A stretch of 64,000 nt of DNA from positions 1-64,000 of IMG/VR virus record IMGVR_UViG_3300045988_068528, one strand, 5' to 3'. This DNA is from a virus. The position numbers and the translations under genes are program-made. Each line of letters begins with the position of its first letter. The stretch's first letter is position 1. The notes under the pieces are model-generated. The model was not told where the DNA came from. It saw only the letters and a program-made list of their open reading frames with translations, and ran no database searches. Of the stretch, positions 19,664-42,344 are shown in pieces.

Positions 19664-20209
19664 TTACTTCTTGAACAGGTCTACGTCGTTATCCTCTCCA
19701 AGTTGCATGATCATCTTTGTCTTGGATGAGGAGATAACCTTGTATTCGATAGGTTTTGTATCGGAGATGAACCATTTTGCCGGATATGTCTTCACGAGCG
19801 TCTCGTGCTCACGGATGATATCGAGCATTCTCTCCTGTGATGTCTGAAACTCGGAGCGCTGAATCTCTATGGACTGCATGAGGTCCTTGTATAGCGAAAC
19901 GTCGAAGTTAGGATTACTTTCCTTGATCCACTTCATAAGAGAGCCGTCTCCCTTTGAGTATCTGCCCTCGATAAGTTTCGGATAGATGGACTCGAATGCG
20001 GACTTGTACTCATCCGTAACCTGTGCCTTCTGCTGAAGAACCTTCCACATCTTGTCGTGAACGCCCTCAATCTTGCCACGCTGAGCCTCTGACTGCTGGC
20101 GAAGTGAGATTTCCTGGTTGTTGTAATGGAAATAACAACCGATAACTGAACCTGCGGCTAGTACTACTATTGCGAGTACTGATGCCAAAATAATGTTTTT
20201 TACACTCAT
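19664..20209 (-). CDS. LemA-like membrane protein (tentative)
   Basis: It has an N-terminal TM segment and a helical body, with general resemblance to the LemA family. This rests on memory only. Confidence 0.45.
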   Translation of the reverse strand: MSVKNIILASVLAIVVLAAGSVIGCYFHYNNQEISLRQQSEAQRGKIEGVHDKMWKVLQQKAQVTDEYKSAFESIYPKLIEGRYSKGDGSLMKWIKESNPNFDVSLYKDLMQSIEIQRSEFQTSQERMLDIIREHETLVKTYPAKWFISDTKPIEYKVISSSKTKMIMQLGEDNDVDLFKK

Positions 20210-20235: not shown

Positions 20236-20796
20236 CTAGAACAGCTCTTTGATTCTTCGGAAGTCCTCGACATCCGGAACCGGGCAATCCTTCACCCACT
20301 CTATGTCCTTCACTTTCCACATAGACAGGTCGATGTCCTTAGGGAGAAGAGCCTTCATGTCTGCGAAGAGGTTGAGACGAAGAGAGCAGTCCGGATTGAA
20401 ATTCCAGTCAACACAATGATTTCTCTTCAAGTCAAGCATCTTGGCGTTGATGCCAACGAACTCCTCGATATCCACCTTTTTGTGAGGGGTCAGGCAAATT
20501 CCATCGAACTCGTAGCTGCAATCTCTGAGAATATCGAAATCGAAGAACGCAGTATAGAGGTAGAACTTCGATTTCGGAAAGCCCATGGCGTATTGCGCAG
20601 CCTCGATACCTTCAACAAGCCATGTTGTCTTCTGACTGATACCAGGCAGAAGAGGTTCTCCACCAGTGATACTAATCTCATCATAGTCCAATCTGTCAAC
20701 TACCGGAATCTTCTCGAAGTCGAACTGGTTATTGCAGCACATCGGACACTTGTTGTGACACTTTGCAGTCACCAGCAATCTTAGTTTCTTGTTCAT
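20236..20796 (-). CDS. radical SAM protein, small (186 aa), NrdG/QueE-like size class
   Basis: It carries CHNKCPMC (a CxxxCxxC motif) near the N-terminus and ITGGEPLL. Confidence 0.75.
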   Translation of the reverse strand: MNKKLRLLVTAKCHNKCPMCCNNQFDFEKIPVVDRLDYDEISITGGEPLLPGISQKTTWLVEGIEAAQYAMGFPKSKFYLYTAFFDFDILRDCSYEFDGICLTPHKKVDIEEFVGINAKMLDLKRNHCVDWNFNPDCSLRLNLFADMKALLPKDIDLSMWKVKDIEWVKDCPVPDVEDFRRIKELF

Positions 20797-21270
20797 AATC
20801 TCAATATTTTATTTATGTATATAACACCTCTATACCCATAAGAAATATGGGATAGCCAAGCGAGCCGAACCTTATTTTTTATCAACTACAATATATATAA
20901 TATACCATAGTAGTTCGTACTCCTTGTAAAGCCAGCACAAGTCTTCTGATACCCACAGAGCTTTGCTCGTTATGGTTGGCTTTCTCATTTCTGATATGGG
21001 CACCCGTCGTGAGGTGACACGTTGCGGGATTTACACAACCATAATGTAACTTACCTGACAGAGCAGTTTTATATATCGGTCGATAACTCCGAAGAGGACT
21101 GCACGGATTGAACCTCGTATGTCTTTGCTTGAAACTTTGAGATAGGGTAAAGAAAAACCCTATCCGCCGTCTGGGTCACGCTCCAAACTTTGGATAGGGT
21201 ATATCATTGTAGTTGAACTAATCAACTTCTAGATAAAACTTATTTATTTGCTAGCGCGTGACTTCTAACA
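20797..21270 (-). ncRNA. long structured 5' leader or candidate cis-regulatory RNA upstream of the radical SAM gene
   Basis: The segment is ORF-free and lies between a predicted promoter and the ATG. Evidence includes an 11-bp long-range helix (20882-20892 with 21206-21216) and a three-segment alternative pairing (21141-48 / 21157-65 / 21192-200). Confidence 0.45.
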
Positions 21271-21277
21271 AGCACTG

Positions 21278-21309
21278 CAAAGATACGACGATTATTCTTA
21301 CCCTCCAAA
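21278..21309 (-). promoter_or_regulatory. Bacteroidota-type promoter: -7 TATCTTTG (21278-21285) and -33 TTTG (21306-21309), 20-nt spacing
   Basis: Exact consensus elements on the minus strand. Confidence 0.55.
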
Positions 21310-21500
21310 TGCCTGATTTGTGTCAAAAATCCGCTCATTCAAGTAAAAAGTAAAAACAAAACTCTCGAAAGTGCTGATTTGGCTAGATGTTTCGATTAGA
21401 GTAAAAACAGGAATTTGTGCTATTCATTAAAGTACTGAATATTTACATTAACCCTTTTTAAGGAAAAAGGGCGCTTTTCGGTGTGTTTTTAGTGGTGACT

Positions 21501-21542
21501 TTAAATAAAATAGCCGCCCATCTGTAAGTGGATAAGCGGCTA
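21501..21542 (-). terminator. intrinsic terminator after the 21563-21781 gene
   Basis: Stem TAGCCGC/GCGGCTA followed on the minus strand by TTTTATTT. Confidence 0.6.
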
Positions 21543-21562
21543 TAGTGTACGACAAACTCCGA

Positions 21563-21781
21563 TTACAGATGCCCTATATCCTCCTTGGATATCCAGGTTC
21601 CGTGACTCGGCTGTTTGTCAAGGGTACAACCGGTAAGGTCCTTCACCCCAAGCTCCTTGCATAGGTCCTCGTCGTGAAAGTCAGCGTAGCACCACCACTT
21701 TGTCTCTTTGGTGGCGGTATCCTGCAATTCTAGCACGACATGAGGATAAAAATGATGTTCTGTACTTATGACTTTGTACAT
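21563..21781 (-). CDS. hypothetical protein (72 aa from ATG 21781; the longer track ORF needs a GTG start)
   Basis: The ORF track entry is 21563-21838. The internal ATG giving MYKVISTEHH is preferred. Confidence 0.5.
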   Translation of the reverse strand: MYKVISTEHHFYPHVVLELQDTATKETKWWCYADFHDEDLCKELGVKDLTGCTLDKQPSHGTWISKEDIGHL

Positions 21782-35551: not shown

Positions 35552-35614
35552 AATTCTGTAATCTTTGGTTAATAGAAATCCCAATTCCTGCTACAGAATT
35601 GGGAAATGTTTGGC

Positions 35615-35839
35615 TTAGAGCTTGTCGATATTCCAGTGTTCTATCTGAAACTCGTAGTCTCGATTGCTCGTACACTGCGACTGCATAATATCTCTCAGCT
35701 GTCTTACCTGCTCGTTAGTCGCTCCTTTCCAATGCGCCGCCCAACAGCATTTTTCTACAGAACTTCCTACAAATACCACCTCCATACTATTTGAGGAGTG
35801 CCAGCTGTCACATTTGTATAAAATATAGATTTCTTTCAT
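35615..35839 (-). CDS. small hypothetical protein
   Basis: 74-aa ORF. Confidence 0.5.
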   Translation of the reverse strand: MKEIYILYKCDSWHSSNSMEVVFVGSSVEKCCWAAHWKGATNEQVRQLRDIMQSQCTSNRDYEFQIEHWNIDKL

Positions 35840-35847
35840 AAGGCGAA

Positions 35848-36003
35848 TTAATTATAATTACACATTATTTCTGTCTCACTGATAATTTCAGCACAATGCT
35901 TGCAGCGATGGCACATTATGTAGCCTTTTGCCTGTAATTTGCTGAACTTCGGGTATGGGCATTTCTCACCCATACCGGCTCTCGTAATCTCAATTTTAAT
36001 CAT
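35848..36003 (-). CDS. small zinc-ribbon-like protein (start at MIKIEIT)
   Basis: It has CPYP...CHRCKHC cysteine pairs and the cassette context. Confidence 0.5.
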   Translation of the reverse strand: MIKIEITRAGMGEKCPYPKFSKLQAKGYIMCHRCKHCAEIISETEIMCNYN

Positions 36004-36061
36004 ATTCAATCTGTATTGGTTAATAGAAATCCCCACCCGTGAGAGTGAAGATTGGTTTGGC

Positions 36062-36265
36062 TTAATACAGAAGAGCTCTGAAACAAAGCTTGTCGCTTAT
36101 TACACCATCTTTCTGTAGCCCGTCCTTCCAGTCATTGAAAGTCATGTTCAAGTCAAGGTTGAACTTTGTCTTCTTGCCAGTGTAGTCGATACCACACTCG
36201 TCGCAAAACTGCCAGAATGCTTCACGAAGCTGCTTCTGGTTTGTGATCTGATATTTATTCGCCAT
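36062..36265 (-). CDS. small hypothetical protein
   Basis: 67-aa ORF. Confidence 0.55.
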   Translation of the reverse strand: MANKYQITNQKQLREAFWQFCDECGIDYTGKKTKFNLDLNMTFNDWKDGLQKDGVISDKLCFRALLY

Positions 36266-36299
36266 AATTCAAATAATTTATCTTGGTTAAACAATAGAA

Positions 36300-36323
36300 G
36301 GCACGCTCAGACATGGGCGCACC
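36300..36323 (-). promoter_or_regulatory. cassette hairpin (example with two strand-specific wobbles)
   Basis: In the minus sense GGUGCGC/GCGUGCC pairs with two G-U wobbles. In the plus sense these are two C-A/A-C mismatches. Confidence 0.6.
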
Positions 36324-36337
36324 TTTTTAGGCAAATA

Positions 36338-41041: not shown

Positions 41042-41169
41042 AATAACTCCTAGCACTTATTTAAACCCCTTGCAATCGGGCATTAATATGAATTGTTTCA
41101 ATGTGTCGTACGGGGTCGCACCGCACACCTACACTTAGGTGTCCTTTTGCTATTCTTCAATAGCTGCTG

Positions 41170-41177
41170 CAAAGGTA
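41170..41177 (-). promoter_or_regulatory. -7 box TACCTTTG (leftward)
   Basis: The plus strand reads CAAAGGTA. Confidence 0.45.
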
Positions 41178-41306
41178 CAAACAATCTTTTAAACTCTTGT
41201 AAATAATTCCGAAAATATTTGTTAGTTTATGCTTTTTTAACTCTTTTGTAACTTACTAGTATTTATGTACGTTTGCGCTTTATAGTCTTCTAATATGGGA
41301 TATAGC

Positions 41307-41341
41307 TAAAAAGCCCTTTATTTGCCGTTTAAGGGCTTTTT
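41307..41341. terminator. bidirectional intrinsic terminator
   Basis: AAAAAGCCCTT-(12 nt)-AAGGGCTTTTT. Confidence 0.6.
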
Positions 41342-41442
41342 AATAGTGTTCCTTACTATTAATAAGGTATGCAGATTAAACCCTCTTAAATCTCAAATTT
41401 GACTATATATCATCAAAAACAAAAAAAATGTAATACGTATTA

Positions 41443-41466
41443 CAAAGGTATAGTCTTTTATCTTTG
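41443..41466. promoter_or_regulatory. back-to-back divergent -7 boxes: TACCTTTG (minus, 41443-50) and TATCTTTG (plus, 41459-66)
   Basis: Both are exact TAnnTTTG matches. Confidence 0.45.
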
Positions 41467-41499
41467 CACTTTATATTCTTCTATTGTACGTATTGAAAA

Positions 41500-41730
41500 T
41501 GCAACCAGTTAGAAAATAGTTAGAATAATATATAACAAAATATATGCTTTATAACATATCGAAAATGGTAATTACATACAACAAATAATATGTTATATAG
41601 CATTTATAAGGTAATAACATATAACAAAAAGGGGGTAAATTCTAGAAAATAGCTAAATTCTCATAACTACCTAATAATCAGCTATTTAGATAGTGTAATT
41701 TTACACTATAGTGCTTTTATGTTAGTTTAT
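41500..41730. repeat. iteron-like and palindromic repeats in an AT-rich region (possible ori or operator cluster)
   Basis: ATAACATAT occurs at 41572, 41613 (inverted) and 41641. TATAACAAAA occurs twice. The palindrome TAGTGTAA-tt-TTACACTA lies near 41703-41720. AAATAGCT/AGCTATTT form an inverted pair. Confidence 0.5.
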
Positions 41731-42209
41731 GCTAGTAAAATAAGGGTGAAATAATATGTAAAGGTATGGAAATAAAATGCAAGCTAAATGGCTGATTATT
41801 AGAGGGTTACAAGAATTTTGGGATATTATAAACCAACATTTTTAAATGTAAAGAAAATATACTCATTTTGATAGTTTATACTATATAAACCAATGCAATT
41901 TGTAATAACTTTTCATGAAGCACCCCCGCACCCCCTTTGCAGCCCATAAATCCAGCGGGTAGTCACCTCTTCTAAAAATTTTTTCTTCCGATTTTTCGAC
42001 CTTCTTGTAAATTAAACTTACTTCGCCTTTAGAAAGTATATTTATGCATATTCATGCACTCACCTATTTTTAACATTTGGCAACATTAACTCCCATATTG
42101 GTGAGCAAAACCATAAATGTATATCTATTATTCATTAAATGTATACTCAAAATGTATATTTATACCCTTTATTTACTAGTGTTTTAGCGTATATTCAGGA
42201 TATTATCTG

Positions 42210-42217
42210 TATCTTTG
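42210..42217 (+). promoter_or_regulatory. -7 box TATCTTTG upstream of the primase operon
   Basis: Exact TAnnTTTG match about 128 nt before ATG 42345. Confidence 0.5.
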
Positions 42218-42344
42218 TACTGTCCTATTTTTAATGGTGACAAGTTGTAAGGACGAGCTGACACGTGTTATCCGTCAGAAATCCCCTGTTTATCGGGGTA
42301 AATCCTACACAATAACGCAAAATTAATATTATTATTGTACACAG

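Follow-up and report, generated by a model that had tools for sequence, protein, structure and literature searches.

The stretch of viral DNA considered here (hereafter the window) comprises positions 1 to 64,000 of IMG/VR record IMGVR_UViG_3300045988_068528, an 88,821-bp phage sequence with direct terminal repeats. Between an open reading frame (ORF) of 91 amino acids (aa; 21838–21563) and the gene for a 186-aa CX3CX2C protein (20796–20236) lies a gap of 766 nucleotides (nt), 20797–21562, and it is this gap, with all coordinates of the element read on the minus strand, that is the subject of this report. The intrinsic terminator of the 91-aa ORF (21543–21510), a 13-bp stem followed by TTTATTT, is the point at which homology with related phages begins and forms the upstream edge of a 735-nt conserved unit. 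Within that unit lie, in the direction of transcription, a Bacteroidota-type promoter (21309–21278), a 5′ unit predicted to correspond to a short RNA of ~125 nt (21273–21149), a region containing a segment termed seg3 (21148–21127), a pseudoknotted 3′ domain of ~300 nt (21123–20825) and an A/U-rich linker to the start codon (20824–20797). The evidence supports reading the region as a non-coding leader that is structured, driven by a promoter and able to form mutually exclusive helices; it represents a portable leader cassette, copies of which are found in temperate Segatella/Prevotella phages. Segatella (Prevotella) copri is among the most abundant human gut bacteria, and gene regulation in its phages is almost unstudied.

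An earlier inspection of this DNA (the sequence-only reading) had claimed that the leader contains no ORF, and this is borne out: each of the six frames across the gap holds 12–14 stop codons. All three kinds of stop occur in each frame, which rules out a gene hidden by stop-codon reassignment. The three longest open stretches in the gap have no Pfam or PHROG match that would indicate a small protein gene; in relatives the open stretches lie in differing frames, and they are not conserved between the types of element described below. ARAGORN finds no tRNA or tmRNA in the gap. The 477-nt RNA running from the predicted start is strongly folded (−127.6 kcal/mol; z = −3.36 relative to shuffled sequences).

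A complete Bacteroidota promoter had also been proposed on the minus strand, and both of its boxes are present, a −33 TTTG at 21309–21306 and a −7 TATCTTTG at 21285–21278, 20 nt apart. Relatives retain both boxes (TTTG and TAnnTTTG) around a diverged spacer and below diverged upstream DNA; the arrangement TTTG-N18–20-TAnnTTTG occurs in 59 of 81 unique upstream sequences, with N20 in 56 of these. From the promoter consensus, transcription is predicted to start near 21273. Direct repeats lie upstream of, or overlap, the −33 box at 21300–21409 (plus-strand coordinates): ACCCTCCAAATGCCTGATTTG with ACTCTCGAAAGTGCTGATTTG, 61 nt apart, and AGTAAAAACA present twice, 51 nt apart. These are possible operator or UP-like elements.

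Related loci were collected by a protein-guided scan for homologues of the 186-aa protein (57 viral loci), by a 28-mer taken from the hairpin (45 loci) and by a degenerate pattern of the conserved core (101 viral loci and 4 genomes), and the overall comparison set amounts to ~130 loci. The four genomes are the chromosome of Segatella copri HDE04 (NZ_CP152346.1, where the match lies at about 1,496,104–1,496,233) and three Prevotella/Bacteroidales assemblies, which indicates Segatella/Prevotella as the host. A search of 151 species-representative genomes from the genus to which S. copri HDE04 belongs gave a match in only 2, and the element is therefore essentially virome-borne. Clustering of the 500 nt around the core separates five types, A (this window), B, C, D and E, which have in common a near-invariant core of ~60 nt, little other sequence and the same architecture. 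The 41 unique type-A copies are 95–99% identical from the −7 box to ~20815, beyond which their flanks diverge abruptly.

Following the promoter, relatives carry one or two small hairpins. The first here, P1, pairs 21271–21265 with 21254–21248, and its loop holds a segment, seg0 (GUCACGC, 21262–21256); UUGUUAG/CUAGCAA is replaced by UUAUCAG/CUGAUAA in a compensatory variant. The second, P2 (21227–21211), is the local hairpin between AGUUGA (21227–21222) and UCAACU (21216–21211) that the sequence-only reading had pointed out; it is confirmed by the compensatory series AGUUGA/UCAACU, AAGUGA/UCACUU and AGUGGC/GCCACU. Next comes a terminator-like hairpin, T (21200–21157), with a lower stem formed by seg1, ACCCUAUCC (21200–21192), and seg2, GGAUAGGGU (21165–21157), an upper stem GUUUGG/CCAGAC and a loop AGCGUGAC (21182–21175). 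In all five types T has a stability of −19 to −25 kcal/mol and is followed by a U-tract or U-rich run, which in this sequence occupies 21156–21149. There is thus a G+C-containing hairpin with an immediate U-tract on the transcribed strand downstream of a promoter. Judged by its sequence, T would act as an intrinsic terminator and release the ~125-nt RNA.

The loop of T and its 3′ strand have alternative partners. The apical loop is complementary to seg0, a segment of 6–8 nt located 10–20 nt into the predicted transcript (GUCACGC, 21262–21256, with GCGUGAC, 21181–21175). This complementarity is retained in 12 distinct sequence versions, among them GUAACGC/GCGUUAC, GUAGCGC/GCGCUAC, UGUGACG/CGUCACA, GUAGCGG/CCGCUAC, GUUGCAG/CUGCAAC and AGGGAAG/CUUCCCU; within type A the change A21259G co-occurs with U21178C. 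Shuffle p-values for single sequences range from 0 to 0.08, and in a control with non-cognate partners, which is clear for this pairing, the cognate partner is the best in 11 of 12 cases. In an alignment of type-A-like units the seg0–loop helix is 96% paired, with compensatory changes on both sides in three of its seven pairs, and the 5′ structure as a whole has 90.4% of cells paired compared with 85.4% in shuffled alignments (0 of 500 reach the observed value) and 34–46% when the partners are slid.

The second alternative involves the 3′ strand of T. The sequence-only reading had described a direct repeat flanking a segment able to pair with either copy; the repeat, UACCCUAUC(-/U)CAAAGUUU, is found at 21201–21184 and 21149–21132 around GGAUAGGGU (21165–21157), and the comparative data bear out the dual pairing. 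The region 21148–21127 contains seg3, ACCCUAUCU together with CAAAGUUU, a copy of the 5′ strand of T which can pair with seg2. Complementarity of seg2 to seg3 extends over 6–13 nt in every type, in sequences that are type-specific. The layout of repeats and complement recurs with compensatory changes in diverged relatives, as do both hairpins noted earlier, the local one and the CCCAUA/UAUGGG hairpin near the start codon. A further helix, P0, joins CAAGC (21131–21127) to GCUUG (21273–21269) at the 5′ end.

The two sets of pairings describe two folds. For the short RNA of this sequence the fold consists of P1, P2 and T (−35.6 kcal/mol). Extension of the RNA through seg3 and a few bases beyond it changes the minimum-energy fold, in types A, B, C and E and in most variants, to one which comprises P0, the seg0–loop helix, P2 and a seg2:seg3 hairpin; in types A, B and C this second fold lies 4–6 kcal/mol below the best fold with T, calculated with seg3 blocked. 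A conserved alternative pairing which excludes T, namely seg2:seg3 together with the seg0–loop helix and carrying compensatory changes, is accordingly present in the family, as in an attenuator.

Downstream of the switch region, the 3′ domain contains about 12 covarying helices and three pseudoknot candidates around the conserved core GACAUACGAGG...CCGAUAUAUAAAAC. Helices H1 and H2 lie within 21123–20825 and are followed by PK1 (21102–21098 with 21067–21063), a pseudoknot candidate, and by the helices H3 (21059–21050 with 20941–20931), H4 (21044–21036 with 20978–20970) and H5/H6 (21028–21003). A GNRA-capped hairpin, H8, occupies 20994–20985; H10 occupies 20959–20945, and its loop, UGGGUA, pairs with GCCCA to form PK2 (21002–20995 with 20957–20950; UGCG/CGCA in type B). 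In H11/H12 (20926–20857) the 13–17 bp of H11 surround H12 and an internal loop that is A-rich and conserved. Some helices are undercounted in the MAFFT alignments; H4, H8, H10 and H11, which are misaligned there, were recovered by structure-guided inspection. In six representatives H11–H13 share an architecture built from unrelated sequences, with z = −2 to −4.3. H13 (20851–20835) is the CCCAUA/UAUGGG hairpin which had been placed about 40 nt before the ATG; it ends 39 nt from the ATG at 20796. Finally, PK3 joins the loop of H6 (21016–21012) to the 3′ tail (20829–20825).

For 17 representatives RNAalifold gives 33 pairs, of which 17 show compensatory changes. With PK1 added, 95.5% of cells are paired, compared with 81.8% in shuffled alignments (0 of 500 as high) and 32–49% in slid controls, and the covariation score of the domain is 0.417 against 0.167 in shuffles (0 of 500). 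Seven versions of the PK3 pairing were found, CACCU/AGGUG here and AUCCAUU/AAUGGAU, AACCAC/GUGGUU, AGCCAC/GUGGCU, CCAGUC/GACUGG, CCAACC/GGUUGG and AACCAU/AUGGUU elsewhere, with a combined shuffle p of ~4e-4 which is rough, as the variants are not fully independent. The cross-type control is weak for PK3 and for seg2:seg3, because their variants have a common core. The use of the 3′ tail by PK3 explains why conservation ends ~20–30 nt before the start codon; in the linker of this phage, conservation with the other copies stops near 20815.

Two other pairings fared less well. The 11-bp helix that had been proposed to close a domain of roughly 330 nt exists here as a perfect complement (21216–21206 with 20892–20882). 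The other types lack it, and changes without compensation weaken it within type A (21206 U>C in 18 of 41 copies, 20889 G>A in 3 of 41), and it was rejected as a feature of the family, whose fold uses other helices. An alternative hairpin in the core, ACG-A-GGU/AUC-CGU, is unsupported, since inspection by eye shows no compensation for the C>A change of types B and D.

The covariation bears directly on whether the conserved unit works as RNA at all. An element acting at the level of DNA, such as a recombination hotspot, an att-like site, a replication origin or a degenerate mobile element whose repeats serve as binding or recombination sites, would fit the way module boundaries coincide with mosaic junctions, one class of which falls at the second repeat copy, and the integrases found near the cassette in some phages. 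Strand-specific compensatory changes, including G–U pairs, in ~20 helices and loop–loop pairings are explained by RNA rather than by duplex DNA, and the conserved promoter stands exactly at the 5′ boundary; a DNA-level role is therefore regarded as most improbable.

The element had been read as a leader tied to a small radical-SAM gene. This link proves incidental, as at least five unrelated genes, the radical-SAM-like gene here among them, have the cassette in front of them. Elsewhere it is followed by genes for a 117-aa protein, for a 67-aa membrane protein with a lipoprotein, for a 231-aa protein and for a 301-aa helix-turn-helix (HTH) regulator. The non-coding block is mosaic within the Segatella phage group, and it keeps 98% identity between contigs whose radical-SAM proteins share only 72–74%. 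That unrelated genes follow it and that its identity exceeds that of the protein show that the cassette is portable and not dedicated to the radical-SAM gene, which should accordingly not be annotated as its specifically regulated target. In types C and E it is located 0.4–0.6 kb from a divergent tyrosine integrase and heads an operon of small genes, while in type D the integrase lies downstream on the opposite strand. Among the proteins encoded next to the cassette in other phages, the 301-aa regulator, the 117-aa protein and a basic 92-aa protein are all absent from this genome, so that no partner protein common to cassette phages was found. In many relatives (L004:2082–2987, L170, L092 and others) the cassette leads into the 301-aa protein, which has an N-terminal HTH (MARITRNKAAEILG...); the cassette abuts the radical-SAM-like gene here because the gene for this regulator is absent.

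The gene itself (20796–20236) encodes a protein with the motifs CHNKCPMC (CX3CX2C) and GGEPLL and is a homologue of crAss001 gp56, annotated as 'HxsC-like radical SAM'; the protein has no Pfam match, and its sole match is phrog_31524, to which no function is assigned. The gene is common to crAss-like phages, with ~72% nucleotide identity to crAss001 gp56, and the present phage differs from these in kind, being temperate. In crAss001 and in Kehishuvirus tikkala no leader intervenes, and the homologous gene follows immediately upon the one before it. Among 50,697 phage records searched for nucleotide similarity, the radical-SAM gene alone has matches and the leader has none. A search of the literature on the core sequence and of Segatella RNA maps found nothing on the element, and neither 'phage' nor 'prophage' occurs in the main text of the S. 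copri RNA atlas preprint.

The sequence-only reading had offered a riboswitch, an attenuator or an independent large RNA. An attenuator and a large RNA each fit parts of the element; a metabolite riboswitch for the radical-SAM gene, responding for example to S-adenosylmethionine, a preQ1-family compound or cobalamin, is very unlikely. Such a riboswitch would account for the presence, ahead of an enzyme gene, of a large domain that is conserved and pseudoknotted, and for the mutually exclusive helices. Rfam 15, which covers riboswitches, GOLLD, ROOL, HEARO, isrK/seqA and C4 RNAs among others, offers no family for it: at the gathering threshold the window yields only tRNAs, a search of 20600–21700 at E-values up to 10 returns two chance matches, both on the other strand, and the leaders of types B, C, D and E and of the variants are unmatched. 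The genes that follow the cassette are functionally unrelated and share no single pathway or transport association, and the same gene is leaderless in crAss001 and tikkala. Moreover, in the switching part it is pairing alone, and not sequence, that is conserved between types, while the sequence-conserved domain lies downstream of T, with no aptamer upstream, and ends so as to leave the start region free.

The exchange of parts extends to the cassette itself. Three other classes of long folded leader, represented by L007, L012 and L017, likewise stand behind the type-A promoter and 5′ unit. These leaders have no match to model R1, a covariance model of the family core whose E-values are rough, and are therefore taken to be other RNA classes; the occurrence of a shared 5′ unit before differing RNAs in turn implies that the 5′ switch and the large RNA are exchangeable modules. 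The three regions (L007:1830–2200, L012:1895–2215 and L017:430–1000) are ORF-free, fold with about −140 to −158 kcal/mol over 470–570 nt and have no Rfam match, and they look like further undescribed classes of structured RNA. All three stand behind the same type-A promoter, and L007 and L012 have the same 5′ switch too.

Such separability would be expected if the region held two independent non-coding RNA genes, a trans-acting small RNA of ~125 nt and a separate structured RNA of ~300 nt that read-through and processing would release and that has its own role in trans, such as binding a host or phage protein, next to which the downstream gene merely happens to lie. The mutually unrelated downstream genes would suit this arrangement, as would the defined 3′ end of the large domain at PK3, 20–45 nt before the next gene. 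The pairings of seg3 and P0, on the other hand, tie the 5′ unit to the read-through RNA, and no terminator or second promoter was found at either end of the 3′ domain, which must therefore be co-transcribed with the following gene. We consider two separate RNA genes possible, though rather doubtful.

The explanation we favour, to which we would give an even chance, is a leader that acts in cis: conditional termination at T would determine how much short RNA is made relative to a long leader-plus-mRNA transcript. In this model, built on the predicted folds, a host-type promoter would start an RNA near 21273, and the first ~125 nt would form the two small hairpins and the strong hairpin T with its U-tract, where termination would release the short RNA. 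Alternatively, the 5′-proximal seg0 would pair with the loop of T, and in a polymerase that had passed the U-tract seg3 would capture the 3′ strand of T, while the 5′ end would pair with the bases following seg3 to form P0. The resulting 5′ domain, closed by P0, would exclude T, so that seg0, seg3 and P0 define the read-through fold. Read-through would produce the ~300-nt domain with its three long-range or pseudoknot pairings and then the next gene, here the radical-SAM-like gene and genes for membrane proteins. The 3′ domain may serve as a cis-acting part of the long transcript in elongation (in the manner of the put sites of phage HK022), stability or protein binding, and this is the weakest step of the model. 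Since the pairing segments are type-specific rather than conserved in sequence, RNA–RNA recognition or folding kinetics seem more probable as the trigger than a small ligand.

Several observations weigh against conditional termination. The layout is not that of a textbook attenuator, because seg3 is transcribed only past the U-tract, and thus follows the termination point, and because seg0 pairs with the loop of T and does not sequester a strand of its lower stem. In the variants L106, L137, L150 and L012 the minimum fold of the read-through RNA still has T, from which it follows that the two states are near in energy, and T could simply be a leaky terminator. The downstream genes of this window are not separated by terminators, which leaves a put-like antitermination by the 3′ domain without an evident target here. 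The majority of relatives, furthermore, come from one large gut-virome data set, and the independent evidence consists of the five types and their sub-variants.

If conditional termination is correct, the cassette is a concrete candidate for an RNA switch whose parts are defined to the nucleotide and for which natural compensatory variants exist. Because it is portable and stands ahead of mutually unrelated cargo, it may serve as an all-purpose module for controlling expression, and could possibly be used as a part in engineering Bacteroidota.

Some neighbouring features of these genomes lie outside the cassette. Beyond the 186-aa gene, a LemA-like protein of 181 aa (19664–20209, minus strand) matches PHROG 1383, 'virion structural protein', an odd assignment for a gene whose neighbours are membrane-protein genes and int/attP. 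Inside a tRNA array, at 11522–11593 (minus strand), ARAGORN reports a tRNA whose two-base anticodon ('tc') is undetermined; it is missing from the Rfam matches at the gathering threshold. At an ORF cutoff of at least 75 aa the genome has two further ORF-free gaps, at 35585–36337 (753 nt) and 41057–42344 (1,288 nt). In Kehishuvirus tikkala (L001:4280–5614) the annotation splits a flavin-dependent thymidylate synthase into two parts separated by a small ORF; it is a single gene in crAss001, and the split could represent an intron or an insertion.

Among known systems, classical attenuators and riboswitch platforms resemble the cassette in having terminator strands with conserved alternative partners and two exclusive folds of similar energy. 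They differ from it in ways already met: unlike in classical attenuators, one partner here is made after the termination point and the other pairs with a loop and not a stem, and unlike in riboswitch platforms, no conserved aptamer precedes the terminator and the pairing sequences are type-specific. The put sequences of HK022 are ~70 nt in length, consist of two stem-loops and lie upstream of the terminators that they suppress. Like putL and putR, the cassette is a cis-acting structured RNA in the early leader of a phage, near a promoter and with no dedicated protein gene adjacent, and P1 and P2 provide two stem-loops before T, although their sequences are not conserved between types; unlike put, it has a large domain of ~300 nt after the terminator, with three pseudoknot candidates. 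This domain adds a new family to the large bacterial and phage RNAs of unassigned function. With GOLLD, ROOL and other large ornate RNAs of phages and prophages (RF01998, RF03087) it shares large size, pseudoknots, phage location, covarying folds and unexplained biochemistry; it has no Rfam match to them, is smaller at ~300 nt, always stands in a leader behind a promoter-proximal terminator and is so far restricted to Segatella/Prevotella phages.

The closest described logic is that of phage P4 immunity, with IsrK of Gifsy-1 near to it. In P4, the CI RNA pairs with seqA upstream and seqC downstream, leading to premature termination (PMC4825925). IsrK has been described as a structural homologue of the P4 SeqA RNA, and in that system the short isoform, ended by termination, acts on the read-through form of the same transcript (PMC4825925). 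By analogy, the cassette might serve a type-specific autoregulation or immunity in which the T loop or seg2 of the short RNA pairs with seg0, seg1 or seg3 of a nascent leader, enforcing or relieving termination. As in P4 (PMC4825925), a central segment of a phage leader is flanked on the same strand by two complementary direct repeats, in the order seg1, seg2, seg3, and, as IsrK provides the precedent for a short terminated isoform acting on the longer one (PMC4825925), control would fall on premature termination or on the state of the read-through isoform; P4 and IsrK make short and long isoforms from one promoter, and the same is predicted here. The pairing segments vary by phage type and stay complementary, as specificity determinants would; the phages are temperate, and the cassette adjoins an integrase in types C, D and E. 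Such a role is nevertheless unlikely, since seg1 and seg2 are paired together in the short RNA, which leaves the loop alone free, no processing signals are known, and neither sequence comparison nor Rfam gives any similarity to isrK/seqA or C4 RNAs. Also unlikely, and drawn by analogy, is the bolder proposal that the cassette gives temperate Bacteroidota phages a decision device made of RNA alone: the short RNA would apply a type-specific 'kissing code' (T loop to seg0, seg2 to seg1 or seg3) to nascent leaders of the same type, an immunity or autoregulation analogous to that of P4 and independently evolved, and the ~300-nt domain would be a new cis-acting class, able to reprogram RNA polymerase or to bring in a host factor on behalf of whatever cargo follows. 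The cassette differs from P4 and IsrK in that its upstream repeat and central segment would by themselves form an intrinsic terminator, in the additional pairing of the loop with seg0, in its host, which belongs to the Bacteroidota and not to the Enterobacteria, and in the knotted 300-nt domain that follows. The likeness to P4 immunity is one of layout and is not taken as membership of that group.

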